Below, piece after piece: positions 15,399 through 49,499 of a stretch of DNA of 49,499 nucleotides (its first letter is position 1; the number at the start of each line of letters is the position of its first letter). The position numbers were made by a program, and so were the translations under genes. The notes beneath the pieces are model-generated. The model saw nothing but the letters and a program-made list of their open reading frames with translations. It did not search any database and was not told the DNA's origin. Origin of the DNA: Oscillatoriales cyanobacterium PMM_0019 (GTDB taxonomy: Bacteria > Cyanobacteriota > Cyanobacteriia > Cyanobacteriales > CASBRB01); assembly GCA_949127975.1 (NCBI GenBank), contig CASBRB010000196.1, positions 1-49,499 on the forward strand, written 5' to 3'.

Positions 15399-15421
15399 TT
15401 GAAGGATAAGTAGGAGGGGTT

Positions 15422-16354: not shown

Positions 16355-16373
16355 GTGATTATCGGGGTGCATC

Positions 16374-19220
16374 ATGACTAAGCCATATTACTTCCGTTTC
16401 ATTAGGAGATGTTTAGGTTCCTTTGTTATACTGTACCTAACGCAGTTTAGCAAACTCAGTAGATCGAAAAGTTTTCCAGAAACTTTAAGGCGCAGGTATG
16501 TTGGGATTAAGGCCACCATCCGTCAGACTCCCCAAGGCATCAACTTCTTGAGGCATAGGGTTGTAGATCAATTTCTACGAGAGCGAACTGTCGCTCGCTC
16601 TCGTAGACCTCAGTTAAATGGGCTGAAAACTACTTTATCTCGTCAACTTACAAAAGTTTTAGATCTACTGAAAGGCTCTCGTAGATTGTTCGCAGGATTT
16701 ACCCGTCAACATCGCGAAAGACAGAGAATGACACGTATGCAACCAGGATTAAAAACAGTTATCTTGTGCTTAGGACGAGGGGATTTGCAGAAAGGCTGTC
16801 CGGATATCAGCGTTGAGCTTTTGGCGTCTGACAATCATACATTGATGAAAAAAATCTGCTGCTTACCCCCTTCGTTAGAACTGGTTAAACTTTATAGGTG
16901 TTGGGAGCTTTTCTACTGGGATTACTATGAAGGTCGGGGGTTTGATTTCCGTAGTGTAACGAATGAAGACGAAGAATACCCCGATGAGATCCTGAATGAA
17001 GACGATGAAGACCCCGATGAGATCCTTAATGAAGACGATGAAGACCCCGATGAGATTGCAGCAGCGGGGATCACCCATATTTCTGAGTACTCTGGGGCTG
17101 AACTAAGCGAACTAGATGAAAAATTAAAAGAGTGTTTCAATAAATGGCTAAGTTGTGAGGAATTTACTAAAATTGAAAAACAATTACGCGATCGATTGGG
17201 ATTATCTGAAAATATTATAATTGTCGTTGAAACTGAAGACGAGCAAATACGGAAACTTCCTTGGAGGCAGTGGAAGTTTGTTGAAGACCACCCTAAAGCA
17301 GGCGTGACTATCAGTGGTTTAACCCGTGAAGACTTGGATAAGTCGTCCCTACCAGAAGAAAAAAATGCAGTTAATATTTTATGTATTATCGGTAATAATA
17401 AAAATATTGATACAACTGATGATATAAATAGTATCAAAAAGATTCAGGGCGTATCAACAACTTTTTTATACCAGCCTTCATCATCAAAATTAAAAGACCA
17501 ACTTTGGGAAAACAGCTATGATTATTTATTGTTTTCTGGTCATAGTTCCAGCAAGGCAGGCGGAGTGATTAAGATAAACGATCGAGAAAGCTTGACAATC
17601 AAGGATTTAAGGGCAGCCCTGAAAAAAGCAATTGAAAATGGATTAAAGTTAGCAATTTTTAATTCTTGTGATGGATTGAAATTGGCAAGTGACTTAGCTG
17701 ATTTAAATATTCCGGCAGTGATTGTCATGCGAGATCCGGTGCCAGACAAAGTTGCACAAAATTTTTTGAACTATTTTATACAAGATTTTTTTAGTGGTAA
17801 TTCCCTAGATGCTTCTGTAAGGAAAGCAGCAGAAAGATTGCAATTAATGGAAAAAGAATTTCCTTGTGCATCGGGGTTGCCAACGCTCGTTTGGAACCGT
17901 GCCGAAGAGCTTCCGCGCCCAAGAACGCCAATCTGGGGTCGTCTTCGTCTAGTGCTTTGTGCAAGTTTACTTGTAACTAGCTTATTGATGTGGGGACGGC
18001 ATCAGGGCAAGCTACAAACATGGGAATTGCAGGCTTTTGACTACTCAATGCTAATGCAGTTGCAACAAGTTGAAAAGCCCGACAATCGGATCTTGGTTGT
18101 CAGAATAACTAAAGACGACATTAATGATCAGCCCCAAAAGGATCGAGGACTAGCATCGCTATCAGAACTCACACTGGAAACTCTCTTAAAGAAACTAGAG
18201 GAAGAGGATCATAAACCGCGAGTCATTGGTTTGGATATTTATCGCCCATTGCCGGTAAACTCCCGCTATATAAACTTAAAAGCTAATTTCCAAAGGAACG
18301 ATCGCCTGATTGTTGTATGCAAAGGTAACACTCCTCAAGATCCAGGTGCTTCACCCCCCCCTGAGGTTCCGCAAAAGCGCATAGGCTTTAGTGATTTTGT
18401 GCTTGATGAGGACAATATTATCCGTCGCCATCTTTTGTTGATGGAGCCTGTAGCCCCTTGTCAGGCAATGGACATAAATAAGAATGACAATATGGAAGCC
18501 TTCAGTGTCAAGTTAGCACTGAGTTATTTGAAAAAACAGGGTATTACACGCCAAGATGGTAAAAACGACGAATTTCTCAAGATTGGCGACGTTATTTTCA
18601 AAGACCTAGAAATCGGCTTTGGCGGCTACCAGCGTTCAGATTCATATAAAGATATGGACGGTCACCAGGTAATGCTGAATTACCGTCATTACCGTGACTA
18701 TCTCAACGACATTGCCAAATCATTAACTCTAAAAGAAGTTTTGAATAATCAGTTTAATACTGCTGATGTAAGAGATCGGATCGTTCTCATAGGTGGTGAT
18801 GTTGAAACTGATTTGTACTATACACCCTTTAGTAATCAGAAAAAGCCCCCTGAGCCAATACCAGGAGTATTCATTCATGCCCAGATGGTGAGCCATATTC
18901 TCAGTGTAGTTCTAAAGGAGCGCCCCTTAATTTGGGCTTGGTCTTGGTGGGGTGATACTCTATGGGTGTGGAGTTGGTCTTTAATAGGGGGTGTGTTGGT
19001 TTGGCGAGTGCGATCGCTATTACGCCTCGGACTTGCTACAGGAGCTGCACTTGTCATTTTGAATGGAATCTGCTTTGTCTTCTTAACGCAAGGCGGTTGG
19101 ATACCACTTGTTCCTTCAGCAATAGCACTGTTAACTACTGCTGGAAGTATAGTAGTTTACAGTGCCTTTTTTTACAACGATTTTGGTAGACATTTAAACC
19201 TTAAATTATCACTGAGATGA
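16374..19220 (+). CDS. Membrane protein with N-terminal CHAT-like (caspase-fold His/Cys) domain and C-terminal CHASE2 sensor domain
   Basis: LLFSGHSS...LAIFNSCDG His/Cys dyad context. TM segment LVLCASLLVTSLLMWG. CHASE2-like ILVVRITKDD...RVIGLDIY. Three or more C-terminal TM helices. Confidence 0.7.
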   Translation: MTKPYYFRFIRRCLGSFVILYLTQFSKLSRSKSFPETLRRRYVGIKATIRQTPQGINFLRHRVVDQFLRERTVARSRRPQLNGLKTTLSRQLTKVLDLLKGSRRLFAGFTRQHRERQRMTRMQPGLKTVILCLGRGDLQKGCPDISVELLASDNHTLMKKICCLPPSLELVKLYRCWELFYWDYYEGRGFDFRSVTNEDEEYPDEILNEDDEDPDEILNEDDEDPDEIAAAGITHISEYSGAELSELDEKLKECFNKWLSCEEFTKIEKQLRDRLGLSENIIIVVETEDEQIRKLPWRQWKFVEDHPKAGVTISGLTREDLDKSSLPEEKNAVNILCIIGNNKNIDTTDDINSIKKIQGVSTTFLYQPSSSKLKDQLWENSYDYLLFSGHSSSKAGGVIKINDRESLTIKDLRAALKKAIENGLKLAIFNSCDGLKLASDLADLNIPAVIVMRDPVPDKVAQNFLNYFIQDFFSGNSLDASVRKAAERLQLMEKEFPCASGLPTLVWNRAEELPRPRTPIWGRLRLVLCASLLVTSLLMWGRHQGKLQTWELQAFDYSMLMQLQQVEKPDNRILVVRITKDDINDQPQKDRGLASLSELTLETLLKKLEEEDHKPRVIGLDIYRPLPVNSRYINLKANFQRNDRLIVVCKGNTPQDPGASPPPEVPQKRIGFSDFVLDEDNIIRRHLLLMEPVAPCQAMDINKNDNMEAFSVKLALSYLKKQGITRQDGKNDEFLKIGDVIFKDLEIGFGGYQRSDSYKDMDGHQVMLNYRHYRDYLNDIAKSLTLKEVLNNQFNTADVRDRIVLIGGDVETDLYYTPFSNQKKPPEPIPGVFIHAQMVSHILSVVLKERPLIWAWSWWGDTLWVWSWSLIGGVLVWRVRSLLRLGLATGAALVILNGICFVFLTQGGWIPLVPSAIALLTTAGSIVVYSAFFYNDFGRHLNLKLSLR
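16962..17060 (+). repeat. In-frame 33-nt x3 tandem repeat encoding acidic NEDxEx PDEIL units
   Basis: Units at 16962, 16995 and 17028, read directly. Confidence 0.9.
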
Positions 19221-20047
19221 AGTTACATTTCCAGAACTTAAAACTTACCGTTGCTGTCACCTTGGCATTCGTTAGTTTGGTAAACACTGTGCCAGCGGTT
19301 CAGAGCGAGACAGATCCTGTGCCTCCTCCAGATGTTCTGCTTTCACCTACTCAAAAGAGCGATCGCTTAATCTTCACACAGCTAGAAGCTTCCAGACGCG
19401 GAGCACCTGGTCGTCGCAGAGGGGGAGGAACCTTTGGTGGTGGTAATCAGTGCAAAGGTGTGACAATACCTCTCACTGCCTTAGTACCTGGTGAGGAGAA
19501 AGTCGGCAGTTTAGACCTAAAAGCCGAAAGCGTTCGGGGATTAACCGCAGAGGGATATCCAACTTTTTGGTTTTTTGTTCCCTATGGGGAAGCGTCTAAA
19601 CTAGACGCTGAGTTAGTCTTGGTAAATGACCAGAATAAACCAGTTTACCAAGAACTTGTTCCGCTAACTGGAACCCCTGGTATAGTGAAAATTTCATCAA
19701 AACGGATGTCAGCACCGTTAGAAGTTGGCAAGGATTATCGGTGGTCATTTTCAGTTATTTGTAACCCGCAAGAGTCATCTGCAAATTTTTATGTGCAAGG
19801 GCGGGTAAAAAGGATCGAGCCAAGTCCCAATCTTACAAGGGAGTTAAAGACAGCAACACCAGAGCAAAAAGTTTTTCTTTATGCCCAAGAAGGCTTGTGG
19901 TATGAAACTGTAACCACTATCAGAGAAGAACTTAGTTCGACTAATCCCCAAAAAGCCACATTACTAATGACTAACCTTTTGCAGTCAGTAGGTTTGGATG
20001 ACATCGCTCAACAGCCATTTGTTCCATGTTGCACGCACAAAAAATAA
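19217..20047 (+). CDS. DUF928 domain-containing secreted protein
   Basis: Signal peptide. RRGAPGRRRGGGT and YPTFWFFVPY signatures. The ATGA start overlaps the stop of the CHASE2 gene. Confidence 0.75.
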   Translation: MKLHFQNLKLTVAVTLAFVSLVNTVPAVQSETDPVPPPDVLLSPTQKSDRLIFTQLEASRRGAPGRRRGGGTFGGGNQCKGVTIPLTALVPGEEKVGSLDLKAESVRGLTAEGYPTFWFFVPYGEASKLDAELVLVNDQNKPVYQELVPLTGTPGIVKISSKRMSAPLEVGKDYRWSFSVICNPQESSANFYVQGRVKRIEPSPNLTRELKTATPEQKVFLYAQEGLWYETVTTIREELSSTNPQKATLLMTNLLQSVGLDDIAQQPFVPCCTHKK

Positions 20048-20069
20048 CTGACCGATGACAATCGAATCA

Positions 20070-22961
20070 CTATAGCCAATCTACCACAAGCACAAATGAT
20101 GCCCAATGACGCGGAGCTTCGTAGGATGAATCAGGATCTTCTAGGAGAGCTTTTTGGGCAAGGTGAAGCGCTTCTGCTGGGCTTTTTTGGTTTTTGACTA
20201 ACTCGGTATAGAACTTCTCTATAAGAATGGTGGTAGAGTCTTGATCTGCAAACCAGAGAGGTGCGATCGTACTGTGTGCCCCAGATTTAACGGCTACTCC
20301 AGCAATTCCCAAAGCTGTTCGATTGTTTCCTTTAGCCGTCTCACAAGCACTCAAGACAAGTAACTGAATAGCATCACCTTTATTTTGGTTCCTATTTTCC
20401 AGGTAACCTCTCAACTCATTTATATTTATTTTACCATCTCCAGAAAGTATATATGTAGTCTGGTAACTTGAACCGAATTGACCATGAGCTGCCAGGTGGA
20501 TTATATTATACAACGATGAGCTAAGCTTGTCTTTAAAAACATTTTTACTGAAGTCTGGATCGAGTAGCACATCAGAATCATTTCTAATTTTCTTAATTAT
20601 ATTTGCTTGTTCCTGCACTAATGGATTGGCACCAAATTCAGGAGGATGTTCTTTAGTTACTCCTGCAAATAGAATTTTAAACCGCTTTAAATTATATTTT
20701 TGAGCTTCTAGAATTTGAACAGTAGGAATCAAAGCTACTGTAAAATTTTTCTGTACCAGATACTCCTTACCATCGTAAAGAGCCGCCATTGGAATATCTC
20801 GTAAATAACCATCTAGTACAAACACTAAAGACTTAATTTTATTTTTATATAACTGGTCTATAAAAGGCAAAATTAACCAGTTATACACTTCTTCTGATAA
20901 GTTCTCACCTTCTTTATCAAATATTGGTTTTCCTAAGAGATAATGCAGTTTTTTCAGCTTCTTTATCACTGCTTTCTCATTAAGATTAGGCGTGACGTGG
21001 TAAAGTAGATTATCTTGCCCAGGCAGCTTGACTATTACCGATACTTGCGTTTTCAAAATAATCGGAAAAATCAAGGCTACTGTCTGATTCTCTCTCAAAA
21101 CTTGATTTATTTGCTTAATCAATATCTCTGTAGGGTCGTCTTGAGCGATAACTCGATTAATCTGTACGGTTCTGACATCCGCTAGGTTGCACTGTAGAAA
21201 ATTTTCTAACTCGGCTAATTGCAGAGATTCAATATAGTAAAGTGATTCTTCTAGTTGTTTTTGATTGGGATGGGTTTCTTCAGGTGGCAATAATAAAGCG
21301 ACTAAGTCTCGATAAACTGGTTCTACATTATCCCGTAAGGAAAACTGCGCTTCTGTGTTCACCCCTGCCAAGTTATTGCGCAGTGACTTGAGAGTTTTCA
21401 CCGCGTCCCGATAGGCAGAAATAGCCTCTGGGATATGGTTCTGTTCTTTGTATATGCGCCCCATCTGCCATTGCCACCGATAGTAGAGATCCGGTGCTAT
21501 GATATTTTGTTGTGATAGGTCCAGGGCTTGCTGAGTAAAAGTTTCAGCTTTATCCCACTGCTTAGTTACTTCATACAGGTTTCCAAGAGTACCAAGAGTG
21601 TAAGATTCTGCGCGTCGATCTCCTTTTCCTAGTTGTCGAGCTTGCTGTGCTGTTTGCCGTAATAAATTGGTAATTTCTGGTTCTGAAGGTGCGCCCGTTA
21701 TCTGAAGCTGTACAAGGCGTATCAAACTCTGAGCCAGGTTAATTTGATTGTAAATTCTGGTACTGCTTGGGGATACATCTGGGATTGGAGTAAGCAGTTG
21801 AGACAGGTTAAATTTAGCAAGCCACTCATTAATTTTGGACTGCCAATTCGGAAAAGCTGGAGATTCTATATATTGCAACCATTGTGCTGTTTCTAGCAAT
21901 AAGCCAATTTGATTGAGTTTAGATTGAATCTTGGTATTGTGAGCAATGAATTGACTGTCTACAGCTTGTTGATAGAGTTTTATCGCTTTGTCAGCACTTT
22001 CTTGAGCTTGCTGTTCATCATCCAACGCTCTGGCGCGACTTGATCTTGCTCGTTCGACGTTACCCAAACTAAGAAGGATATCACCACTAATGCTTTGAGA
22101 AGATTTTAGACTGTTAGCTAATTTTTGACTTGAGTCGAAAAATGATTTAGCATCATCATAGTCTCCTAAGGCTAGATAAACATTACCAAAGTTGTACAAA
22201 CCGCCGAACTTAATCAATAAATCTAGCGGCTGTTGGAGAATGTATTTAATGTGTTTTGAAGCATCGTAGTCTAGCTTGTCAATTTTAAAAGCTTGCTCGT
22301 CAATTTTAAAAGCTTTCAGTAATGTTTTGCGAGCGTCCAGGTAATATCCTAGATATTGCAGCGCTTGAGATTGGTTGATTTGGTTGCGGATACTTCCAGC
22401 CGTGTCTGTTACTTTGATGTAGATTGCATCCGCCTGTCGCCAGGTTTCCAATGCTTCTTTAGCTTTTCCTAATGCTAATTCCAGCTTGCCGCGTGTATTT
22501 AAGGCTTGAGCCAAAACTGGCAATTGCTCTGGAGAATTACTTGTATCTAGTACTGTTGGTAACAGTTGCAAGCTGTCGTTAATAGCTTGTTCTGCCTCAG
22601 TCCATCTGCTCTGTTGCTGATAAGTCAGTGAGAGATTACTCAAAGCCATAGCCTGACACAGCTTATTTTTTTGGGATTGATAATTATCTCTGGCTGATTC
22701 CCATGCTGTCTGTGCTTTGTCGAACTGTCCTGTTTCGTAAAATTCTCTACCTGGCTGTACGAGTGGGCAGGAATTGACAGGTGTAGGAGGAACTTGGGAC
22801 ATGGCGGGGGATATCCCTATGCCCGTAAACAAATTGTATGCCAACTGCCCCAACAATGCCAAAACAAAGAGTAGCAGTAAGTGCCAGCGCGATCGCATAA
22901 GACTATGTATTAATGCAAGCAGTTTTCTAGAAATGTTCATCAGATCAATTACCAAAGTCAC
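20070..22961 (-). CDS. TPR-repeat protein with C-terminal CHAT (caspase-like) domain
   Basis: N-terminal TM/signal segment, many TPR-like repeats, IIHLAAHGQF and LLVLSACETAKG His/Cys motifs. Starts 6 nt after the stop of the TPS exoprotein gene. Confidence 0.85.
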   Translation of the reverse strand: MTLVIDLMNISRKLLALIHSLMRSRWHLLLLFVLALLGQLAYNLFTGIGISPAMSQVPPTPVNSCPLVQPGREFYETGQFDKAQTAWESARDNYQSQKNKLCQAMALSNLSLTYQQQSRWTEAEQAINDSLQLLPTVLDTSNSPEQLPVLAQALNTRGKLELALGKAKEALETWRQADAIYIKVTDTAGSIRNQINQSQALQYLGYYLDARKTLLKAFKIDEQAFKIDKLDYDASKHIKYILQQPLDLLIKFGGLYNFGNVYLALGDYDDAKSFFDSSQKLANSLKSSQSISGDILLSLGNVERARSSRARALDDEQQAQESADKAIKLYQQAVDSQFIAHNTKIQSKLNQIGLLLETAQWLQYIESPAFPNWQSKINEWLAKFNLSQLLTPIPDVSPSSTRIYNQINLAQSLIRLVQLQITGAPSEPEITNLLRQTAQQARQLGKGDRRAESYTLGTLGNLYEVTKQWDKAETFTQQALDLSQQNIIAPDLYYRWQWQMGRIYKEQNHIPEAISAYRDAVKTLKSLRNNLAGVNTEAQFSLRDNVEPVYRDLVALLLPPEETHPNQKQLEESLYYIESLQLAELENFLQCNLADVRTVQINRVIAQDDPTEILIKQINQVLRENQTVALIFPIILKTQVSVIVKLPGQDNLLYHVTPNLNEKAVIKKLKKLHYLLGKPIFDKEGENLSEEVYNWLILPFIDQLYKNKIKSLVFVLDGYLRDIPMAALYDGKEYLVQKNFTVALIPTVQILEAQKYNLKRFKILFAGVTKEHPPEFGANPLVQEQANIIKKIRNDSDVLLDPDFSKNVFKDKLSSSLYNIIHLAAHGQFGSSYQTTYILSGDGKININELRGYLENRNQNKGDAIQLLVLSACETAKGNNRTALGIAGVAVKSGAHSTIAPLWFADQDSTTILIEKFYTELVKNQKSPAEALHLAQKALLEDPDSSYEAPRHWASFVLVVDWL

Positions 22962-22967
22962 TATTTA

Positions 22968-25900
22968 TCATGGCGCTTGGCAGCCAGTTGGTGTCTGAGC
23001 TACAAGCAATAACCGATTATCGGCGGTTTTCACCAGCGCCTGGGCTTCCACAATTGGCATTGATACAGAACTGGTGGCAGTTCTTGCACGCGGGACAGAA
23101 GCGCCCAAATCGTCCAGAGTCGTATTATTATTGAGGACTTCATTAGGCTGAGGTGGCAATCCGCCAGTTCCGCTGACAGTAAAGCTGTTGGTTGCTACTG
23201 TCCCACTGGATTGACAGACGGGGAAGTTGGCGACAGGTTGCCCTAACTCCAATCGCAAAGGGGCTACTGAGCGACTAGGATCGTCTAGCCTCTTGATTGT
23301 CACCTGGCCATTGATCCCCAGTTGGGAACTGGCATCAATGTTACTATCTGGTGAACCAAAGATTCCTGCAACTGTTATTGCAATATTACCTCCTTGTCCG
23401 CGAATAGCATTAGCTCGGATGTCACTATTTTCCAAAGCTATAATAGTGTCACTGTTGAAATTAATATTCCCACCGTTAGCAGTGCCTAAAGCATTGGTGG
23501 TGATATTACTTTGGTGACGCAGTTGTGCGTCTTTTGCCTGTATTGTAATATTGCCGCGATCGCCTGCTGTGGTGTTAGCCTTAAAACTGCTGTTGTCCAT
23601 ATAGAGCGAGTTAGTCTCAATTCCCATATTGCCTGCTCCCCCTAAACCATCAGCGCTCACAGAGGATTGGGCTCCATCCAGGATTTGCAACTGCCCCGTT
23701 TGAACTGTTAAGTTTCCGCCTGCACCTGTTGAGTTAGCTTCGGTGTTGGCAAACAAGCCACTGGCTGATCCTTGGTTGCCACTGATATCTGGAACGAGTT
23801 TTCCGGTGTTATCTATAACATTCTGGATAGGTCGGTTAGCAAAATTGCGATCGCTCCCAGAGAGGATAATGCTACCATCGACATGCAGGTTAATATTCCC
23901 TGCCTTACCACTGCCAGCAGTTGTAGTTACGATTTGTCCGCCATTAATCGCTTCAACCCGATGGGCGTTAATATTAATATTTCCCCCAGGACTGGAATTA
24001 AGAGTTAAAGAACTGATAATTGCTCCATCTAGCACCCGCAACCTATCAGTATTAACTGTGATTTCTCCCGCCTGACTATGTGCAGCCTGTTCGGTAGGTG
24101 TAAATAATCCACTAGATTGCCCGTTAGAGCCAACTCCAGCTAGAGTAACCTCGCGAGCATTAATCTGAATATTTCCTCCTTTTCCTTGATTGCGAGTGCT
24201 AGCGATCGCTATAGCTCCATTAGTGATAGAAATTGTCCCCGCTACGAGCGAAATGTTTCCTCCTCGACCAACTCCAAAATCTTTAACACTACTGTATATA
24301 CCACTGTTTCTAGGAAAGCCAAGGTTGGGATCGAATAAACCCAGTCCATCTAAGACAATGCGATCGCTTACATTAATATCAATAATCCCCGCATCGCCCA
24401 TCCCATTTGTACTGCTGGTGAGGTAAGCACCATGAGTGACAAAGAGCGACCCCGCCACGATCTTAATTATCCCGCCATTACCTACAGCTTGAATTCCTAC
24501 TTGATTGAAGGCACCACTAGATGCGATATCCAAACCCTGTCCATCAAAGGTTACAGTATCGCGAACATTAATATTTATAATCCCCGCATTACCTTGTCCC
24601 AATGTACTAGCGGTGATCGCAGCACCGTTGGTAACAAAAAGCGAGCCTGCCGCAATACTAATATTACCCCCATCACCGACAGCATTTTGATTTTCTACGC
24701 GATTGTAGATCCCAGTGGAAAATAAATCAGGTCCCTCACCATCAAGAATGGCAAGATCTCGGACATTTATATTTATACTACCTGCCTGACCATGTCCAAA
24801 GGTACTAACTTGCAGCGTTGCACCATTAGTAAAAGATAGCGAGCCCGCCGTAATATTAACATTACCCCCTTGACCCACACCTGTAGATGCTACATTGCTG
24901 AATGCACCACTGGAGTTGCCATTCCTGCCCTCTCCATCAAAGGAAACGCGATCTCTAACATTAATATTTACAATACCCGCGTTGCCTCGTCCATAGGTAC
25001 TAGCAGTAAAAATTGCACCATTAGTCATAAAAAGCGATCCAGCTGTGAGATTAATATTACCCCCATTACCTACAGCATCTTTGGTTTCTACCCGACTGTA
25101 TATACCACTAGAAGAAAATGGGCCTTTGGGATCGGCCCCATCAAAAGAAGCGATATTTTTAACATTAATCAATACATTGCCCGCATCACCCACTCCAAAA
25201 GTGCTGGCAATCAAATCAGATGCATCAGTAACTTTGAGCGATTCGGCTTCGATAATAATGTCGCCACCCTTGCCCGTAGCTCTAGATTGCACCACATTAG
25301 CAAGAAAACTCCCACCAGACAGGTTAATTTTCCCTGTCGTGTTAAGTTCAATATTTCCTGCCTTACTGCCAACCGAACCCAACCCCAAACCTATCCCTGC
25401 TCGCAGATTACTTCCTCCTGACATATCTAAATTCCGGGCATTGACAACAATGCTGCCACCACCTCCAGCACGGACATTCACTTCAGCACCATTGCTCAGG
25501 GATACGTCTGCTCGTTGTACTCCCTCCGGGAAACTTAAACGCAGGTTACTGCCATCTACGATTAGAGGTATGGTTCCAGAACCTGCTAGTCCTCCCAACT
25601 CGACTCGACCCCCTGGTGCTAATAACTGCCCACCATCAATCTGCACATTGCCACCCACCAATAACAAACTTTGACCAGATGGAACTTCTAAATTTGCGTG
25701 ATTGGTGATCGAGTTCGCTGCCAGTTGATTTAAGAAAAGGGCATTCGGGTTTACCGTCAATAGTGTTGGGTTATTCGGAGTTGTTGCACTAAATTTGCCT
25801 ACATTGCCAAACCCTAGAGCATTGGCTGTTGTAGCCACAAAAGAACCACGGATATCTAAGCCTGCATTCGGACCAAAAATAATTCCATTGGGATTGAGCA

Positions 25901-26267
25901 GGAATAAGTTAGCTGTGCCGTTGGCTCGCAGAATGCCATTAATAGTAGACATCGACCCACCTGTCACCCGCGTGAAGATGTTACTAACATCCACAGCATT
26001 GTTGAAAAGAGCCGTACCACCTGTGGGTACAGAAAACTGAGTAAAGCTGTGAAAAAGGTTGCCCCCGGCTCTGGTGCCACCGTTAATCAGACTGGTAGAA
26101 CCCTGCGATGTGACAAGAGAATTGACAGGCAGAGTTTTATCAGGTATAATCGACGGAGGTATGATTTGCGCTCCTGTGCGAGTTCCGGGGAATGCTCTAG
26201 CTCCACCCATCGCAAAAAAACTCATGAGTCCTAACTTCCAGCCCCAACGCCCCCAATTTTTAGCCAT
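22968..26267 (-). CDS. Two-partner-secretion (filamentous hemagglutinin N-terminal, TPS) domain exoprotein with beta-helix repeats
   Basis: Signal peptide. GGNLFHSFTQFSV and LFLLNPNGIIFG TPS motifs. Long Gly/Asn/Ile-rich repeat region. Confidence 0.9.
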   Translation of the reverse strand: MAKNWGRWGWKLGLMSFFAMGGARAFPGTRTGAQIIPPSIIPDKTLPVNSLVTSQGSTSLINGGTRAGGNLFHSFTQFSVPTGGTALFNNAVDVSNIFTRVTGGSMSTINGILRANGTANLFLLNPNGIIFGPNAGLDIRGSFVATTANALGFGNVGKFSATTPNNPTLLTVNPNALFLNQLAANSITNHANLEVPSGQSLLLVGGNVQIDGGQLLAPGGRVELGGLAGSGTIPLIVDGSNLRLSFPEGVQRADVSLSNGAEVNVRAGGGGSIVVNARNLDMSGGSNLRAGIGLGLGSVGSKAGNIELNTTGKINLSGGSFLANVVQSRATGKGGDIIIEAESLKVTDASDLIASTFGVGDAGNVLINVKNIASFDGADPKGPFSSSGIYSRVETKDAVGNGGNINLTAGSLFMTNGAIFTASTYGRGNAGIVNINVRDRVSFDGEGRNGNSSGAFSNVASTGVGQGGNVNITAGSLSFTNGATLQVSTFGHGQAGSININVRDLAILDGEGPDLFSTGIYNRVENQNAVGDGGNISIAAGSLFVTNGAAITASTLGQGNAGIININVRDTVTFDGQGLDIASSGAFNQVGIQAVGNGGIIKIVAGSLFVTHGAYLTSSTNGMGDAGIIDINVSDRIVLDGLGLFDPNLGFPRNSGIYSSVKDFGVGRGGNISLVAGTISITNGAIAIASTRNQGKGGNIQINAREVTLAGVGSNGQSSGLFTPTEQAAHSQAGEITVNTDRLRVLDGAIISSLTLNSSPGGNININAHRVEAINGGQIVTTTAGSGKAGNINLHVDGSIILSGSDRNFANRPIQNVIDNTGKLVPDISGNQGSASGLFANTEANSTGAGGNLTVQTGQLQILDGAQSSVSADGLGGAGNMGIETNSLYMDNSSFKANTTAGDRGNITIQAKDAQLRHQSNITTNALGTANGGNINFNSDTIIALENSDIRANAIRGQGGNIAITVAGIFGSPDSNIDASSQLGINGQVTIKRLDDPSRSVAPLRLELGQPVANFPVCQSSGTVATNSFTVSGTGGLPPQPNEVLNNNTTLDDLGASVPRARTATSSVSMPIVEAQALVKTADNRLLLVAQTPTGCQAP
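24270..25250 (-). repeat. About five internal ~200-nt (about 67-aa) repeats in the TPS exoprotein
   Basis: Recurrent GNAGI.NINVRD...FDG.G...GGN.NI.AGSL..TNGA units. Boundaries are approximate. Confidence 0.6.
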
Positions 26268-29615: not shown

Positions 29616-30017
29616 TCAAGAAAAATCGTTAAGGCCCAATTCATCGTCTAACTCTTCAGGCGTTTTGGAATGGGGCGTACTCTCGGCTGGTACCGACGAT
29701 GGACTTTGAGCGACTGGCATGTAAGGGATTCTATCCTTATCAGTCGGGGATTCCAACTGCAACACACGTTCGATTAGCTTTATCTGCATCTCCAGATCCC
29801 CGATAGCTTTCCAACCAACTTCTCGCAGCACAGCCGGATCTCGCGAGCCACTATGAAAAAAAGCTAGAGGCATCCAATAAGCTCTCAACGCTTCCATCAC
29901 TGCATCCGCTGAACCGAGAGTCGGGTGAGAGAGCAGGTACTCGAGCAGCTTACCATCTCCCTGCCTCTTACTCTTCTTCAGTCTCAGCTTTAATTCGATC
30001 GGGTCGCTAATAGGCAT
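29616..30017 (-). CDS. Small protein upstream of the actin-like gene, candidate ParR-like centromere-binding adaptor
   Basis: Basic N-terminus (IELKLRLKKSKRQ), acidic C-terminal tail (EELDDELGLNDFS). Lies 18 nt upstream of the actin-like ORF and directly downstream of the iteron array. Confidence 0.4.
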   Translation of the reverse strand: MPISDPIELKLRLKKSKRQGDGKLLEYLLSHPTLGSADAVMEALRAYWMPLAFFHSGSRDPAVLREVGWKAIGDLEMQIKLIERVLQLESPTDKDRIPYMPVAQSPSSVPAESTPHSKTPEELDDELGLNDFS

Positions 30018-30165
30018 AAATACTTAGAAAAATTAGCTATTTTTGGGTGGTTAAAGGATGGAGATAAGTGGTGACAAACCCAATTAAATCACATAGGGGT
30101 GGAATAAGTTTCAGTAGTATACCACGATTATAGCAAATTCTGCCCTCTATGTCTGCTCCATAATC

Positions 30166-30272
30166 CACCCTATAGTCACCCTATATCCACTATATTACAC
30201 CCTATGTCAACCTTGCTGTCTGCTCCTTTTTACACCCTATAGTCACCCTATATCCACTACTATACACCCTAA
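30166..30272. promoter_or_regulatory. Candidate centromere (parC-like): two 67-bp direct repeats, each with four CACCCTAT-type boxes at 10-11 bp spacing
   Basis: Boxes start at 30166, 30177, 30188 (degenerate), 30198 and at 30233, 30244, 30255 (degenerate), 30265. An inverted near-copy lies at 30093-30101. TATAAT sits on the minus strand at 30132-30127. Confidence 0.6.
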
Positions 30273-30755
30273 GTCCCCCGTCCCCGCGCTTTTTGGCTGT
30301 TGATGCAGGGGGGTTTAATAAGAAATATTGGCAATTTAATCAGGAGAATATTATCAAGTGGCACAAGAGTTTGTCCGGTGAAACGGCGCAGAGGAAATAA
30401 AATTTAAGGCGTTTTTTCGTATACTAAAAAACATCTCAAAATTCCCAAAAGTCTCCGAAAGCTCATTCCTCCGGTGAAAAATTTACCCCGAAGTGGCACC
30501 AAATACTAATGAGAATAATTATTAATTAGCCTGGTATTTTTATCTGGCTCTAGAAAATCTGCTCCTCGGACACAAATTTTTCACGCTTAGCCTTGTGTTC
30601 ACAGGAGTTATGGTGCGCTTGAGCGTTAAGCCTCGAGAGTCGGACTTGGTGAGTCTAGGTGATTTGGCGTAAAATAGATTAGTCTCAGCCGATTAGCAGA
30701 GCGGCGGGAGACAACTGAACCTTGAGCGTGCATTGGCGATGAAAATATTCGGTGA

Positions 30756-31496
30756 GTGCAGGAAAGTTTTATGTCACCATCAAAACGGAATCGAGACAAC
30801 AGCGCTTATAAGCTGCCCGATGGGGCATTGTATGTAGATAAAATTTGTGAGTTGTACGACATATGGGAGTCTACTTGTCACGCTCGGCTGAATGTATTGA
30901 ACATCGATACACTGAAACTAAATGGGTGGGCTTATCTCACCAAAGAGCAGTTGGCAGAGTTTGATAGACTCGACAAGCACCTAAAAGTTGATAGGCGGTA
31001 CAAGACATATAGGAAGAGTCAGGAGCGACAGGATGCGCCTAAAGTTGTGGTTAACTCTGATGCCGCAGCCGAGCCAGAAGAACCCAGTAAGCTTGAACAA
31101 GCAGAAGAGAAAGTTGAAGTCAATGACAATGATTTGGTTGTTGACGCGGATAAAGCACCTCCAACAGCGCCTCCACTACAATTACCCCAGGCACCATTAC
31201 CCCAGCAGATACAGGTGCCAACCAAAGCACCCAAAGCACCGAGGAGAAAGTCAGCGCCCAAACCATTACCCAAGCAACTATATAGACAGGTACAACGGAA
31301 AGCTCAACCGGCTCCTACAACAAAGCCAGAGTCCCCAAAGACGCTTTGGTGGGATTCATTATTTAGAATGGTGGGGATAGGATTATTCGTCCTAGGTCTG
31401 TCAATGTTCTACCAGCACAAAGATTCACTCCAACCCATTCAGACGTGGAGTAGCCCTGTCAATGAATCTGTCTCGTCCGAGAGTAGCGCTCCTTGA
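30756..31496 (+). CDS. Hypothetical protein with a proline-rich central region and a C-terminal TM helix
   Basis: PPTAPPLQLPQAPLPQQIQVP... then FRMVGIGLFVLGLSMFY. GTG 30756 or ATG 30771. Confidence 0.5.
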   Translation: MQESFMSPSKRNRDNSAYKLPDGALYVDKICELYDIWESTCHARLNVLNIDTLKLNGWAYLTKEQLAEFDRLDKHLKVDRRYKTYRKSQERQDAPKVVVNSDAAAEPEEPSKLEQAEEKVEVNDNDLVVDADKAPPTAPPLQLPQAPLPQQIQVPTKAPKAPRRKSAPKPLPKQLYRQVQRKAQPAPTTKPESPKTLWWDSLFRMVGIGLFVLGLSMFYQHKDSLQPIQTWSSPVNESVSSESSAP

Positions 31497-43573: not shown

Positions 43574-46500
43574 GTGGTTACCAGTATGACACACTCCAAC
43601 CCAGAACGGGTAGTACCATTTGACAGATCGCAGGCTTCCGAACAACTCAAAGCTTTAGGCTACGAACCAGGACGGGATTTAATCTTCCTCCGCTACATAG
43701 ATCCGACGAAGACGGAACCCGCAGACATGAAAACAGGTGCGCGTTCCCTCAACCAGAAGGTAATCGAGGCAAAACAGCGCCAGGGCTACGACGTCTATTT
43801 CGTGGTTAACGGACAAGGTAACAAAGACGACAAGGTAAAACTCGGACGTGCGCTGTGGTACGAACACGATAAAATGACCAAAGAACTACAGCGGGAACTG
43901 TGGAAGACGCTCGGACTACCAGAACCAACATTTCAAGTAGACACCGGGGGTAAGTCGATTCATAGTTACTGGGTATTTGACGAGCCGATTCCCATAGAGC
44001 AGTGGGAGCCACTTCAATCTGACTTGCTGGAATACTCGGATGGCGATCGCACGATCAAAAACCCGTCTCGCATTCTCCGGCTAGCTGGCTGCGCTTACAT
44101 GAAAGGGGATAACCCAGGGACGACGCAAGCAACCATCATCAGTAACAGTGGCAAGCGCTACACCTACCCAGAATTACGGACAATTATCCCACAACCACAG
44201 CCGCCAGAGCCGCCACAGATTCCCAAACCTTCTTACCAGCCATCGATCCCCGATGACGTTCCCCTATATATCTGTCTGACTAAGGACGATCGCGCACTGC
44301 TCGATTGCGGGGCAACTGATATGCGTAACGCCCAGGGAGCTAAACTAGCACGTAACCTCATCGGCACGGCAGAACGGCTGATAACCCTTGGCTATCGCTT
44401 CAGTGGAGATCCATACCAATTATTTATAGACTACTGCCAGTGCTGTCGCCAAGGTGACGGGTGGAATCAGAAAGAGTGGGACTCAATCTGGAAGTCAGCG
44501 CAGAAGGACAACCCCACGCCATCAATGACAGACGATGCCATAGTAAACTGCATCAAAGCGTGGCAGCGCAACCAGCTCAATAGCCGAAAATCTTCTTCTC
44601 AAGGTGAAGCGACTGAGCCAGAGAACAAAGCAATCGCTACCAAAAAGAGGAAAACCAAATCACCACCACCACCATCACCATCCTCCGATGAAGCACCAGA
44701 AGAAAATGAAATAGAAGAAATAGACTGGAAGGAACCACAATCATACCATCGGACTCTTGGATTCTGGAAAAAAAATAAGGGTGACGGTGAAGAATTTTAC
44801 TGGGAGCCGCGCTGTAACTTTGATTTTCAAATAGAGCGGGAATTATCCGACAGCGACGGTGGTGGATTCATTCTTCAGATTGCACCACAGTGGACTACGC
44901 AGCAATACAGAGTATTGGTACGCCGTAATGCACTTTCCTCGCCCGATGAATTCGCTTCCTCAATATCCAAAGCTTTAACAGCTACAGTAACCTGCTCTTT
45001 GACTAAATGGGAATTAAATGCCTTGATTGCAGCCCGACAATTAGCTTATCGCAGCCGAGGTGAAAAGCTTTTTAAAGTGTGCGATCGCTACGGTCAACAG
45101 CGTAATGCATTGTGGGTATTTGAGGAGTACCAATTTACTCAGACAGGAACCCCAACAACAGAGGAAGAAAGTTTATTCGTATTCGATCCGGCTTTGGGTA
45201 AAGAAGACTTTATTCCTTGCCCACAGCTAGCAGACCCTAATGGAATTGAGGGCTTAACTGAACTGATAAATGCTGGACGGCAAGCGCTTGGTAAAGAAAA
45301 TGCCAATCAATTTATCTTAGCTGTGGCTTGGGTCGTGGCTGGCTTGCATTTGCAAACTATTAAGAAAGAAGAAGGATTCTTCCCATTACTGAATGCTCAT
45401 GGTGACCCCGGTACTGGGAAGACGATCGCGCTAGAATCAGCACTTTCGTTAATTGGCACAAACTGGGCTGATGATGGCATGATTTCCAAAGTCACCATGT
45501 CAGCAGTCTACGAACATCTGAGCAAGACAGGCTCTTTACCCGTAGTTTGGGACGATCCACCACGCAATTGGGGACACGGGGAACTGGATGAATTTTGCAA
45601 GGCGATGTGGAACCTCAAATCACGAGTCGTGAGGGGTAACCGACAGACACCACACAGTACAATTGCTTTTACCAGCAACCATCTCATGTGCGCCGAACAA
45701 GATGCCGCCTACACCCGCATCTTGCGACTGCCATTTTACAAAGGTGGCGACCCATTAGCAATTCCTCTGCTCCGGGCAGCACAGAAAAAAGCATCTGGAT
45801 CTTTTCAGCAATTAATTTCAATTGGCTACGATCCTATTGAAGTCAGGAAGCTAGAGCAAGTATTTCTCCCTAAATTACCTTTAGCTCATGCCAGAATTGC
45901 ATTTATTATGGCTATGATCTGCTGTTACGCCGAGAAGGTACTCGCCATAGTTGGTGGCAATGAAAATCCTCGCCAGTGGATTATAGATAATCTCTGCCCT
46001 CTGGAAAACGATGCAGAAAATACCGGAGATTCCTTGCAAGATTTTATCCGCTGCATCATCGCTCTGGAAGGTAAAGATGCCATTGGGAGTTGGAACAAAC
46101 GTACTTACACAGATTCAAATGGGCAAAAATGGGTGGCGATTCACCCTGAATCTGTGTGGGCTGAGGTTGAGAAAGCTTTTAAACCAACAACCTACAACAA
46201 AAAATCCATAAAGATCCACCTTCTCAAAATTGGTGGGGTGGCAGATAAAGTCGTTAAATTTGACCAATCCCGCGATGAAGTACTAGCTTACCATCGGGCG
46301 TTTATCTCTCCCCGCCTCGATCCTGAAGGTAATCCAATCTCGCCAATCCCTCCACGCCAACTGGCGAGAAAAGCTTGGTTATTTCCTGGTAGCTTGTTCC
46401 CTCCAGGTGACGACCATACACCGCCACCACCACCACCACCACCACCAACACCAACACCAACACCAACACCCTCACCAGTTACGAAGGTTACCGAAGTTAC

Positions 46501-47512
46501 CGCTGGTTACCAAAAGTTACCGAATTTGGTAACCAGCGGTAACCCAGATATATCAAGGGATTCAGGCGCATCAATTACCCAAGTTACCTTCGTTACCGAA
46601 AAAAATAGTAATTCTAATGAAAAAAATGGATTAAGCAACCACGGCGAGAACTCGCCAAACCACGGTGCGATTGAAGATGCGCCAGGTTACCAGCCTAGTA
46701 ACCAAAATGGTTACCATAATGGTAACCAAACCGAAACCATTGATATGACTGGGTTACCAGTGGTTACCGACCCTGGTAACCAGACGGTAACTTTTGGTAA
46801 CCACGGTAACCACGGTAACCAGGATTCTGAAAATGTCAAAGAAATTGAAGATATAGCCGAGCAGCTCCAGGAAGCACTTGCCACCAATTTCCGCGAGATG
46901 CTGTCCCAACCGGAGCTGCTGGCTACAAAGCTTGGGGAGCAACCCGCTGCCACCGAGGTAGTACAACTAGATTTATTCGCGCAACCCAAGCCAGTTCCCA
47001 CCGAGCCAGTACCGCTCACCAGCTTCGCTCCCGATGCCTACCAACCGGAAGCAGAGTCAGAAGCACCAAAACCGTCAAAGCTACAACGAAATATTGAAGA
47101 GGAAGAAGCTATGAAGGCGCTCCTCAAAAAACAATTTCCACTTGGCGCGACGGTGAAACGTATTGATGCTGGCTACCAGGGCATAGTAACTGGCTACCAT
47201 CAGTCAGGCAATGTGGTTTTTGATCTAGAAGGCAACCGTGGCGTAGATATCCAACCACCTACCAACCTTGAACTAATTTCACTGCCACACAGCGAAGTAA
47301 GAGATGAAGTCAAAAAGGATGTTTTTGACGTCAAACAGTTAAAGGTTGGCTCGCGTGTAAAAATTAACACGGGACCTTCGTATCGCACACACGGTCTTGT
47401 TGGCACTATTACCGGGGTTAACGGGGTGCGGTATGCCATTGCATTAGAAGATCCTGAAATTCCTTTTTGCGAGATTAAACCTGAATACCTGGAATTAGTT
47501 GAAGAGAGCTAG
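43574..47512 (+). CDS. Plasmid replication protein: AEP-type primase-polymerase N-terminus, P-loop (SF3-like) NTPase centre, poly-Pro/Thr linker, low-complexity region, two SH3/KOW-like C-terminal modules
   Basis: DVYFVVNG, LWYEHD, GGKSIHSYWVF and ILRLAGC primase-like motifs. Walker A GDPGTGKT, Walker B LPVVWDDP. GTG 43574 or in-frame ATG 43586. Confidence 0.7.
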   Translation: MVTSMTHSNPERVVPFDRSQASEQLKALGYEPGRDLIFLRYIDPTKTEPADMKTGARSLNQKVIEAKQRQGYDVYFVVNGQGNKDDKVKLGRALWYEHDKMTKELQRELWKTLGLPEPTFQVDTGGKSIHSYWVFDEPIPIEQWEPLQSDLLEYSDGDRTIKNPSRILRLAGCAYMKGDNPGTTQATIISNSGKRYTYPELRTIIPQPQPPEPPQIPKPSYQPSIPDDVPLYICLTKDDRALLDCGATDMRNAQGAKLARNLIGTAERLITLGYRFSGDPYQLFIDYCQCCRQGDGWNQKEWDSIWKSAQKDNPTPSMTDDAIVNCIKAWQRNQLNSRKSSSQGEATEPENKAIATKKRKTKSPPPPSPSSDEAPEENEIEEIDWKEPQSYHRTLGFWKKNKGDGEEFYWEPRCNFDFQIERELSDSDGGGFILQIAPQWTTQQYRVLVRRNALSSPDEFASSISKALTATVTCSLTKWELNALIAARQLAYRSRGEKLFKVCDRYGQQRNALWVFEEYQFTQTGTPTTEEESLFVFDPALGKEDFIPCPQLADPNGIEGLTELINAGRQALGKENANQFILAVAWVVAGLHLQTIKKEEGFFPLLNAHGDPGTGKTIALESALSLIGTNWADDGMISKVTMSAVYEHLSKTGSLPVVWDDPPRNWGHGELDEFCKAMWNLKSRVVRGNRQTPHSTIAFTSNHLMCAEQDAAYTRILRLPFYKGGDPLAIPLLRAAQKKASGSFQQLISIGYDPIEVRKLEQVFLPKLPLAHARIAFIMAMICCYAEKVLAIVGGNENPRQWIIDNLCPLENDAENTGDSLQDFIRCIIALEGKDAIGSWNKRTYTDSNGQKWVAIHPESVWAEVEKAFKPTTYNKKSIKIHLLKIGGVADKVVKFDQSRDEVLAYHRAFISPRLDPEGNPISPIPPRQLARKAWLFPGSLFPPGDDHTPPPPPPPPPTPTPTPTPSPVTKVTEVTAGYQKLPNLVTSGNPDISRDSGASITQVTFVTEKNSNSNEKNGLSNHGENSPNHGAIEDAPGYQPSNQNGYHNGNQTETIDMTGLPVVTDPGNQTVTFGNHGNHGNQDSENVKEIEDIAEQLQEALATNFREMLSQPELLATKLGEQPAATEVVQLDLFAQPKPVPTEPVPLTSFAPDAYQPEAESEAPKPSKLQRNIEEEEAMKALLKKQFPLGATVKRIDAGYQGIVTGYHQSGNVVFDLEGNRGVDIQPPTNLELISLPHSEVRDEVKKDVFDVKQLKVGSRVKINTGPSYRTHGLVGTITGVNGVRYAIALEDPEIPFCEIKPEYLELVEES
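46478..46820. repeat. Array of about 20 GGTNACC-type heptamers (GGTTACC/GGTAACC and one-mismatch variants) in both orientations inside the rep ORF
   Basis: Examples: 46486, 46505, 46528, 46538, 46685, 46709, 46721, 46752, 46762, 46775, 46796, 46805, 46814. Spacings are mostly 9-13 bp. Confidence 0.9.
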
Positions 47513-48715: not shown

Positions 48716-49081
48716 TCAACTGCGGGAGTTGATACCTTCACCATGACTAAGAGCTAATGCCAAGATCTGCGCTCCCTCCTGAACGACTCTAGCAACAGCT
48801 TCAACTGGCAGCGATCGCACATGAGTTAATAACTTCTCTACAGGATCTTCCGCAGGCAGTTTTCCTTCATTGAGAAAAAGTTGGAGATCTTCTACGCTCC
48901 AACCTTTCAAAGCTGCCAATTTTTGAAGATTATTTGTATCCGGCAAACCTACTTTGGCTTCCCACAACGAAACCGCAGGACGACTAATGCCTAGTCTTTT
49001 TGCCAACTGACCTTGCGTCAGAGCAAGATCTGCCCGCAGTTCTTTGACGAATGTGGATAGTCGTTCGGTTTTCGAGTTCAT
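48716..49081 (-). CDS. XRE-family HTH regulator (intact paralog of 26566-26926)
   Basis: LTQGQLAKRLGISRPAVSLWE. Shares NLQKLAALKGWS.EDLQ with the paralog. Confidence 0.75.
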   Translation of the reverse strand: MNSKTERLSTFVKELRADLALTQGQLAKRLGISRPAVSLWEAKVGLPDTNNLQKLAALKGWSVEDLQLFLNEGKLPAEDPVEKLLTHVRSLPVEAVARVVQEGAQILALALSHGEGINSRS

Positions 49082-49270: not shown

Positions 49271-49499
49271 ATGACTGACAACAACAATAATTGCAAAACT
49301 TTTGTTGAATGCTGTTCAACAAGTCCACTTATTGAACAGGATTCAACAAGCCCACTTATTGAACAGGATTCAACAAGCCCACTTATTGAACAGGATTCAA
49401 CAAGCCCACTTATTGAACAGGATTCAACAAGTCCACTTATTGAACAGGATTCAACAAGTCCACTTATTGAACAGGATTCAACAAGTCCACTTATTGAAC
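49271..49499 (+). CDS. Possible 5'-partial ORF encoding STSPLIEQD nonapeptide repeats (alternative reading of the 27-bp repeat array)
   Basis: ATG 49271 is open to the window edge. No convincing RBS. Confidence 0.25.
   Translation, partial: MTDNNNNCKTFVECCSTSPLIEQDSTSPLIEQDSTSPLIEQDSTSPLIEQDSTSPLIEQDSTSPLIEQDSTSPLIE
49315..49499. repeat. 27-bp tandem repeat, 6.8 copies, running off the window edge. Each unit contains the palindrome TTGAACAGGATTCAA
   Basis: Unit starts at 49315, 49342, 49369, 49396, 49423, 49450 and 49477. A single C/T variable position has the pattern T,C,C,C,T,T,T. Confidence 0.95.

Follow-up and report, generated by a model that had tools for sequence, protein, structure and literature searches.

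A predicted SaPI-type replication origin within the reading frame of a cyanobacterial primase-helicase gene

Background

The Rep proteins of the staphylococcal pathogenicity islands (SaPIs) are self-loading helicases whose C-terminal winged-helix domain binds penta- or hexanucleotide iterons (PMC9371898). In the corresponding origins, 6-12 iterons stand immediately downstream of rep around a centre rich in A/T, with at least two opposed iterons to either side of it, and neither ATP nor a loader is required for Rep to bind and melt them (PMC9371898). In the mec cassette chromosome of staphylococci (SCCmec), Cch2 binds 5-nt direct repeats that lie immediately downstream of the gene encoding it and unwinds them, and this is where priming begins (PMC7581432). 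Here we describe an array of 20 short sites within rep, the replication gene of a 49,499-nt contig from Oscillatoriales cyanobacterium PMM_0019 (assembly GCA_949127975.1, contig CASBRB010000196.1; this whole stretch is referred to as the window), and we propose that the array is probably the vegetative replication origin of a plasmid, of the SaPI Rep/SCCmec Cch type, with its iterons and its unwinding element embedded in the rep frame.

Plasmid origins in cyanobacteria are poorly defined, and vector tools for these organisms are few (10.1101/2022.11.17.516977, PMC10899382). The fusion of an All3500-type archaeo-eukaryotic-type primase-polymerase (AEP) to putative helicases, which is the architecture in question here, has been catalogued (PMC5862659). 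The literature on cyanobacterial Reps covers other families (CyRepA, CyRepX) and does not define origins of this kind.

The iteron array and its anatomy

Within the rep open reading frame (ORF), the 343 bp from 46478 to 46820 hold 20 GTWAC cores (span 46478-46819) with the oriented consensus RGTTACCR; 13 of the sites are exact GGTWACC words and 19 lie within one mismatch, in line with a preliminary description of this DNA that had put the number at about 20 GGTTACC/GGTAACC-like copies in some 340 bp. The contig as a whole has 22 copies of GGTNACC, compared with 7.5 ± 2.75 in shuffled sequences, and none of 100 shuffles reaches 22. Thirteen of these 22 fall inside 46486-46820, and the nine beyond the array compare with 7.5 expected for the entire contig. 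Exact GGTWACC occurs 20 times, 13 times within the array, and each of the seven copies beyond it is isolated, so the impression of scattered single copies elsewhere was correct. When all 6-mers are considered in all 400-bp windows, the array is the top-ranked cluster of the contig (Poisson p = 2 × 10-26, against 2 × 10-11 for the runner-up). Its parts, with the tract directly 5' of it, are the following; L022 and L048 are two related loci considered below.

46413-46470 (+): (ACCAAC)n tract directly 5' of the array, encoding PPPPPPPPPTPTPTPTP; linker or origin flank
46478-46545: left iteron cluster, five GTTACC-oriented sites (46478, 46487, 46496, 46506, 46516), then two inverted sites (46529, 46539); spacing 9, 9, 10, 10, 13 and 10 bp; sites positionally homologous with those of L022 and L048
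after the left cluster: gap of 44 bp between site centres
46582-46598: abutting sites, two GTTACC-oriented words (AGTTACC, CGTTACC) touching the A/T-rich tract
46598-46640: A/T-rich centre, 43 bp, 20% GC, coding strand A-rich; predicted DNA-unwinding element
after the A/T-rich centre: G+C-richer spacer of about 45 bp
46685-46820: right iteron cluster, 11 sites (4 GTTAC, 7 GTAAC), the last five consecutive sites all GTAAC-oriented

Within the clusters the centre-to-centre spacing is 9-13 bp, as first described, and the array as a whole is interrupted by gaps of 44, 94 and 31 bp, the second of which holds the 20%-GC tract at 46598-46640. Nine sites lie in the arm to the left of this tract and 11 in the arm to its right, with orientations of 7:2 and 4:7, which is a bias and not a strict rule. 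On the + strand 11 cores read GTTAC and nine read GTAAC, and 8, 10 and 2 cores fall in frames 0, 1 and 2 of the ORF, where the word gives VT, GYQ, GNQ/GNH or LP, depending on the frame. That one word is read in several frames and on both strands had already been recognized from the letters of the locus.

DnaA boxes (TTATCCACA, at most one mismatch) number 15 in the contig, against 13.3 expected, with none within 800 bp of the array. A promoter and terminator scan around the array was uninformative, its matches being the inverted iterons themselves, and no Rfam family matches the array. The (ACCAAC)n tract at 46413-46470 comprises 9.5 copies of the hexamer, has a GC skew of about -0.9 and an AT skew of +1.0, and encodes a Pro/Thr tract.

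Place and layout of the array in related loci

A scan of a genome collection recovered 57 cyanobacterial loci encoding the helicase module of Rep. De novo 6-mer enrichment in the DNA that follows the module covered 47 loci, site maps covered 46, and spacings were pooled over 39. A strongly over-represented short word follows the module in most of the 47 loci. In a scan of entire loci, restricted to the 37 with a length of 7 kb or more, the top-ranked 6-mer cluster sat right behind the module in 34, compared with a chance value of about 0.1 per locus. Rep relatives are found on complete cyanobacterial plasmids, and the rep array is the top word cluster in both NZ_CP091920 (Nostoc) and NC_014504 (Gloeothece PCC 7822). 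The word itself differs between groups of loci, as listed here.

GGTTACC: this window, L022, L048, L052
TGTAAC(C): L007, L011, L013, L016, L018, L024, L026, L028, L037, L041
TGAAAC: L001, L003-L006
TGCAAC: L008-L010
GTAATC: L012, L014, L017
GTCAAC: L031, L034-L036, L039, L044
GATCA[ACT] (for example GATCAC): L025, L030, L040
GCTACC: L042, L049
GGTACC: L043, L046

The relatives nearest to the window in the helicase module (L001 and L003-L006, 53-63% identity) use TGAAAC and not GGTTACC, and relatives with the array at the same place and in the same layout are only 35-63% identical in the adjacent domain. In each locus the word is spread over several frames and both strands. The layout that recurs in the site maps consists of three to five sites in the same direction, one or two inverted sites, some 40-50 bp of intervening DNA, one or two further sites, a tract of at most 20% GC (in many loci, not all) and then a second cluster mainly of the opposite orientation. 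Neighbouring sites of the same orientation are 8-11 bp apart, with a mode of 9, and those of opposite orientation 12-14 bp; since spacings of 8, 10 and 11 bp are common, as frequent as multiples of three, the period is not a codon period.

The GTTACC sites of the window, L022 and L048 stand in register, while the helicase modules are only 38-39% identical. Their alignment shares the string AATAGTAAT in the A/T-rich tract, and a tract at the equivalent place is marked in many other relatives, not in all. The junction GTTACC-GAAAAA is conserved in relatives as well and can be seen in their peptides as VTEK... or VTKK.... Sites are positionally shared and spacers have diverged, a measure that is partly circular and serves as illustration only. 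In six loci (L024, L037, L042, L043, L046, L052) most or all sites lie past the stop codon, and in L026 and L008-L010 the array is partly past it.

Because the layout is kept while the word changes by clade, and because in about ten loci the stop codon of the ORF precedes or interrupts the array, the comparison indicates that the DNA word and not the peptide is under selection. The preliminary description had regarded the peptide as a by-product of a conserved DNA word, and the rep homologues bear this out, since they keep the place and the layout of the array and not the peptide.

Several further observations concern the same group of loci. L022 and L048 are paralogous rep loci about 60 kb apart on one 123-kb contig (CAVXZH010000007.1), with the same GTTACC word and near-identical arrays; the rep of L048 is frameshifted in the helicase module and its array is kept. 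In two Crocosphaera loci (L021, about 650-1150; L023, about 1150-1650) the strongest cluster is AGATTG/CAATCT, with 10 copies in 500 bp, and it sits about 5.5 kb upstream of the post-helicase array. In some relatives the linker from primase to helicase contains a second tandem repeat within the ORF (PDATKVQ six times and TVNNSSQ five times, in P0002 and P0003), and a 12-bp unit is repeated 6.8 times in that linker of a Nostoc plasmid rep (L058, 28233-28314). The Rep of the window has no such second repeat.

Translation through the array

In about two-thirds of the loci, the window included, the ORF continues across the array and ends in a C-terminal extension that varies; in about ten relatives it ends before or within the array, as in SaPIs. 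In the window the ORF frame has no stop across the array, compared with 4 and 15 stops in the other two frames, and none of the nine GTAAC cores stands in the frame that reads TAA, for which chance gives (2/3)^9, or about 0.03, at this locus alone. Because the ORF frame alone is free of stops and no GTAAC core occupies the TAA frame, we conclude that read-through is itself maintained. The iterons are translated because the predicted origin directly follows the helicase-coding sequence and this lineage has gained a C-terminal extension downstream of it. The odd low-complexity peptide (VTKVTEVTAGYQ..., GNHGNHGNQ) is the translation of the predicted origin, dictated by the DNA word.

Modules of the Rep protein

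No family in Pfam or NCBIfam matches Rep above threshold, and megablast of rep against plasmids gave no match. The features of the gene, which is the sole replication gene recognized on the contig, are as follows.

43574-47512 (+): rep ORF, 1312 amino acids (aa) if read from GTG 43574, or 1308 aa in the database version, which begins at ATG 43586
43576-43582: single GGTTACC, 4 nt upstream of ATG 43586; possible operator, not family-wide
43718-44161 (+): N-terminal AEP PrimPol domain, from phmmer against PDB chains and a profile search
44738-46399 (+): predicted Cch/SaPI-Rep-like self-loading helicase-initiator module, aa 389-942 (554 aa), from AlphaFold2 and Foldseek
45401-45424 (+): Walker A, GDPGTGKT
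45542-45559 (+): Walker B, VVWDDP
46193-46225 (+): candidate recognition helix YNKKSIKIHLL, in the predicted winged-helix-like C-terminal part of the helicase module
46823-47509 (+): C-terminal extension, aa 1084-1312 (229 aa), reached solely by translation through the array

The N-terminal domain matches PDB 6zp9, described as 'PrimPol AEP domain', with E = 1.7 × 10-25 by phmmer, and the profile search gives E = 8 × 10-34. A TSNH motif is present alongside Walker A and Walker B. An AlphaFold2 model of this module, built on an alignment of 24 sequences, reaches a pLDDT of 90.4, and its best match in Foldseek is SCCmec Cch (5dgk; E = 1.3 × 10-13, TM 0.52-0.56), with SaPIbov1 Rep (8tch) at E = 3.4 × 10-12 and TM 0.51-0.58. 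Both alignments span the full module (526-566 columns for the 554-residue query), and the next matches are SaPI5 PriRep, PriRep1, the poxvirus D5/E5 helicases and the NrS-1 helicase. The predicted fold follows that of Cch and SaPI Rep, with an N-terminal beta domain, an AAA+ ATPase and a C-terminal domain. On the strength of the model, the module is best described as a remote structural relative of Cch and SaPI Rep and not as a member of their sequence family (DUF927).

In model residues 432-550 the order of secondary-structure elements fits a winged helix; the region lies within the full-length structural alignment, without a domain-level alignment of its own. The array begins 79 bp past the last residue of the helicase module. 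The search for specificity residues, which comprised group-specific columns, the best relative in sliding windows and inspection of the winged-helix alignment, revealed neither a module swap nor a clean code. Because the Rep of the window is nearest to the TGAAAC clade along the entire helicase module, the word switch was probably due to a few substitutions; K876, I881 and H882 in the predicted recognition helix are named as candidate specificity residues purely as a guess.

For the C-terminal extension, neither local blastp among the relatives nor a large protein search returned homologues, and the single-sequence AlphaFold2 model is unreliable (pLDDT 38). Its sequence gives the impression, and only that, of two SH3/KOW-like repeats. 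We do not claim the GGTTACC at 43576 as a functional operator; the cognate word is weakly enriched near the rep start across 38 loci (18 observed, 9.8 expected).

The array as a probable replication origin

We propose the array as the cognate origin of Rep because the published behaviour of the structural relatives explains its anatomy, and we consider this reading probable. That behaviour is set beside what the computation shows: the array and its statistics, its conserved place and layout with clade-specific words, its persistence whether or not it is coding, and the predicted fold of the module next to it. That the array is an iteron or origin element of Rep was suggested from the outset, and the suggestion gains from the adjacent module being a predicted structural homologue of SaPIbov1 Rep and SCCmec Cch, with a matching origin layout. 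The further description as helically phased, classic iterons holds in part: the sites are of an iteron type, of the SaPI/SCCmec kind and not the 17-22-bp kind of Rep_3 plasmids, and the same-orientation spacing peaks at 9 bp, which is not a helical turn.

By analogy with the staphylococcal systems we infer Rep binding, the binding domain, melting of the A/T-rich tract, double-ring loading and a theta mode of replication. In this model Rep has three parts, namely an AEP primase-polymerase, an AAA+ helicase resembling Cch and SaPI Rep, and at its C-terminal side a winged-helix-like part. The 7-bp word RGTTACCR would be read by the winged-helix end of the helicase module, and Rep oligomers would form on the two oppositely biased clusters (9 + 11 sites) around the 43-bp, 20%-GC tract. 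These oligomers would melt 46598-46640, and helicase rings would load themselves on the strands, probably one per arm. The fused primase could then lay the first primers, and the host polymerase would finish theta replication. Earlier, the C-terminal modules had been put forward as binders of the array; relatives with arrays exist that lack these modules, which makes the winged-helix end of the helicase module the more likely binder. In addition, the array likely contributes to copy control or incompatibility through titration or handcuffing, a role that is inseparable in silico from origin function.

Several points weigh against the array being the origin. The opposed orientation of the two arms is only partial (7:2 on the left, 4:7 on the right). 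The homology of the helicase module to Cch and SaPI Rep is one of predicted structure, at a TM of about 0.5-0.6, and the Pfam model DUF927 gives only 13.4 bits (E = 0.06), against a cut-off of 22.6 bits, around Walker A only. No residues that track the word were found in the winged-helix region or elsewhere in the module. Cumulative GC skew shows no turn at the array in the contig or in two complete plasmids, although on such small replicons GC skew is weak and tracks gene orientation. Finally, a 27-bp tandem repeat (TTCAACAAGTCCACTTATTGAACAGGA) occupies 49315-49499 with at least 6.9 copies at 98% matches, is preceded by degenerate copies from about 49275, and runs off the 3' end of the contig; this array could be an origin, a centromere, an operator array or a second set of iterons. 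Each of its units carries an inverted pair, TTGAAC...TTCAA, and the array lies 1.8 kb downstream of rep and upstream of an XRE-type regulator gene (48716-49081, - strand). It probably caused the break in the assembly.

Alternative explanations

The strongest competitor is an array that serves only as binding sites for Rep or another protein, in copy control, incompatibility (titration or handcuffing) or partition, with initiation elsewhere, for instance in the 27-bp tandem repeat at 49315-49499 or in A/T-rich DNA upstream of rep. Both of these places offer something: the tandem array has at least seven copies, and the region upstream of rep is indeed A/T-rich. Arrays of short sites in both orientations are also found in centromeres and control regions, and the skew profile lends no support to initiation at the iterons. 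However, the array always accompanies the helicase module and not par genes; no ParA is recognized in the window, and the one in L058 lies 2.7 kb away. Neither of the complete plasmids L058 and L059 contains a comparably long tandem array to act as an alternative origin, and the rep-internal array is the top word cluster in both. An A/T centre flanked by oppositely biased iterons is, moreover, the layout of an unwinding origin and matches the SaPI ori point by point. We regard a control-only array as unlikely.

A second alternative is that the element acts as single-stranded DNA or as RNA, its hairpins being a single-strand initiation site, a rolling-circle origin or a regulatory structure in the mRNA. 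The single-strand fold of 46470-46830, in which the left and right arms pair with each other, has a stability well beyond that of shuffled sequences (-89 against -38 kcal/mol, z = -11.9). Yet any array with the same word in both orientations would fold in this way, and the stability is a consequence of the arrangement and not independent evidence; we read the pairing of the arms as dyad symmetry and not as a functional hairpin. Relatives keep the identity of the word and spacings of 8-14 bp, which suggests recognition of the duplex and not the geometry of a stem. Rep is a predicted primase-helicase whose model matches helicase-initiators only, and nothing indicates a rolling-circle (HUH) nuclease; the Rfam scan, too, was negative at the array. 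Altogether this alternative seems very improbable.

It is more doubtful still that the repeats were selected as protein, or arose by slippage, as a low-complexity flexible linker in which the DNA word is incidental. The array is translated, the ORF frame is the only open one, and the stretch rich in Gly, Asn, Thr and Val looks disordered and lies between folded parts, preceded by the Pro/Thr tract. But one word in three frames and on both strands encodes the unrelated peptides VT, GYQ, GNQ/GNH and LP, and relatives retain the layout while changing the word and hence the peptide. The frames and strands used, the non-codon spacing and the partly or wholly non-coding arrays of about ten relatives effectively refute selection at the level of the peptide.

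A target cluster for a BstEII-like (GGTNACC) restriction-modification or methylation system, which the preliminary description had raised and for which a known type II target and the near-palindrome GGTWACC could be cited, is less likely still, as GGTNACC beyond the array is at expectation, neither avoided nor generally enriched, relatives use the non-palindromic TGAAAC, GTCAAC, GTAATC and GCTACC in the same layout, and no restriction-modification gene occurs among the large ORFs scanned.

Genetic context

The contig encodes a MobA/VirD2-type relaxase, a DUF433/DUF5615 toxin-antitoxin pair and an XRE regulator. Because of these genes, and because relatives of Rep reside on complete plasmids, we assign rep as the gene that replicates a plasmid-like, mobilizable element of a filamentous cyanobacterium.

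Just upstream of rep lies a full-length HEARO RNA (Rfam RF02033; 43119-43332, - strand; 114.8 bits, E = 4 × 10-23). HEARO is an RNA associated with ORFs of the HNH-endonuclease/IscB type; no large HNH/IscB ORF follows it on its strand, and it appears to stand alone. At 30150-30275, two 67-bp direct repeats rich in CACCCTATA-like words form the third-best word cluster of the contig. They are intergenic, between ORFs 29616-30017 (-) and 30756-31496 (+), with the relaxase gene 3.5 kb away, and may be a binding-site array such as a centromere, or may be related to an origin of transfer (oriT). A repeat of about 100 bp occurs at both ends of the contig (34-135 and 48108-48208, 83-89% identity); one copy is just upstream of the toxin-antitoxin operon and may be a duplicated promoter or operator region. 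The cargo at 14709-26267 includes CHAT-domain proteins with TPR or CHASE2, DUF1822, DUF928 and a TPS-domain secreted protein (filamentous-haemagglutinin-like), and a similar cluster of DUF1822 and CHAT is present on the Gloeothece PCC 7822 plasmid that bears a related rep.

Significance

We found no description of such arrays in cyanobacterial plasmids in the literature, of which subscription journals were mostly uncovered, so that a prior account is possible. As far as we have found, no SaPI-type origin that runs as 20 heptamers through a reading frame has been described before. The array gives a base-pair-resolution origin prediction for cyanobacterial primase-helicase replicons of a widespread family, counted here at 57 genome loci plus several complete plasmids, and would carry an origin type described so far for staphylococcal elements, that of SaPI and SCCmec, into a different phylum and onto true plasmids. 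The words suggest about ten specificity classes that exist ready-made, which makes rep plus about 400 bp a candidate for mutually compatible minimal replicons. The locus is also a case of overlapping codes, in which a predicted protein-binding DNA code of 20 sites lies over an ORF, the word sits in a stop-avoiding frame and the peptide follows the DNA.

More tentatively, and with the odds rather against it, the family may be a natural library of orthogonal helicase-origin pairs, in which changes of one or two bases in the word set replication specificity and incompatibility, the layout stays fixed, the linker is rewritten at each switch and bound Rep exerts a roadblock feedback. If so, each switch of specificity would also rewrite the linker peptide of Rep, the origin being translated. 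Rep bound within its own gene could then be a roadblock to transcription, coupling the occupancy of the origin to the ratio of full-length to C-terminally truncated Rep, and this would amount to a built-in feedback on copy number that has not been described for SaPI-type origins.

Comparison with known replication systems

The locus does not resemble a classical iteron plasmid of the Rep_3/RepA type. Its words are 7 bp long and occur in both orientations, as opposed to direct repeats of 17-22 bp, and Rep has no Pfam or NCBIfam match to an initiator of that family, its predicted fold being that of an AAA+ helicase. The ORF at 43574-47512 does contain the array, which groups the locus with the in-initiator origins of lambda O and repC; this is a positional class and not a homologous family. 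The iterons of lambdoid O are about 19 bp, much longer than the 7-bp word. Like the array, the ori of lambdoid phages has its iterons and A/T tract in the middle of the initiator gene, in the linker-coding part of O, and extra iterons add residues to the O protein, so that selection at the DNA level shapes the peptide (PMC7466680). In contrast to Rep, O is neither a helicase nor a primase and shares no homology with it; only 4-6 iterons are present, and these stand to one side of the A/T tract. In repABC plasmids, oriV is likewise within the initiator gene, repC, at an A+T-rich region, but no iterons are detectable there and the initiator family is unrelated (PMC3155836).

The embedding of an origin in its initiator gene is, as lambda O and repC illustrate, not new in itself. 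The alpha protein of satellite phage P4, like RepA of N15, holds a primase, a helicase and a C-terminal winged-helix origin-binding domain in one polypeptide, and P4 has short 8-bp 'type I' repeats in both orientations; its ori and crr are intergenic and several kb apart. The ori of N15 lies inside repA. The primase and helicase families of P4 and N15 differ from those of the window Rep.

SCCmec Cch and Cch2 are among the closest systems, with 5dgk as the best structural match of the helicase module and the Cch2 repeats also directly downstream of their own gene. Unlike the window, SCCmec has only three iterons, which are intergenic, and its primase is a separate A-family polymerase complex; the origin function in SCCmec is itself only putative.

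The SaPIs, too, are among the closest systems. Differences are present: the window belongs to a cyanobacterial plasmid and not to a Firmicute phage satellite, DUF927 is sub-threshold, there are 20 sites instead of 6-12, the primase comes from a different AEP family, and the predicted origin forms a translated part of the ORF, which continues into a C-terminal extension. As in SaPI origins, however, many short iterons (5-7 nt) stand directly 3' of the helicase-coding sequence, in two sets of opposite orientation bias around an A/T-rich centre. Both systems have an AAA+ helicase initiator, which in SaPIs carries a C-terminal winged-helix domain and is sometimes fused to a primase (PriRep5) and in the window ends in a part predicted to be winged-helix-like, and in both the specificity of the iterons varies between related elements.

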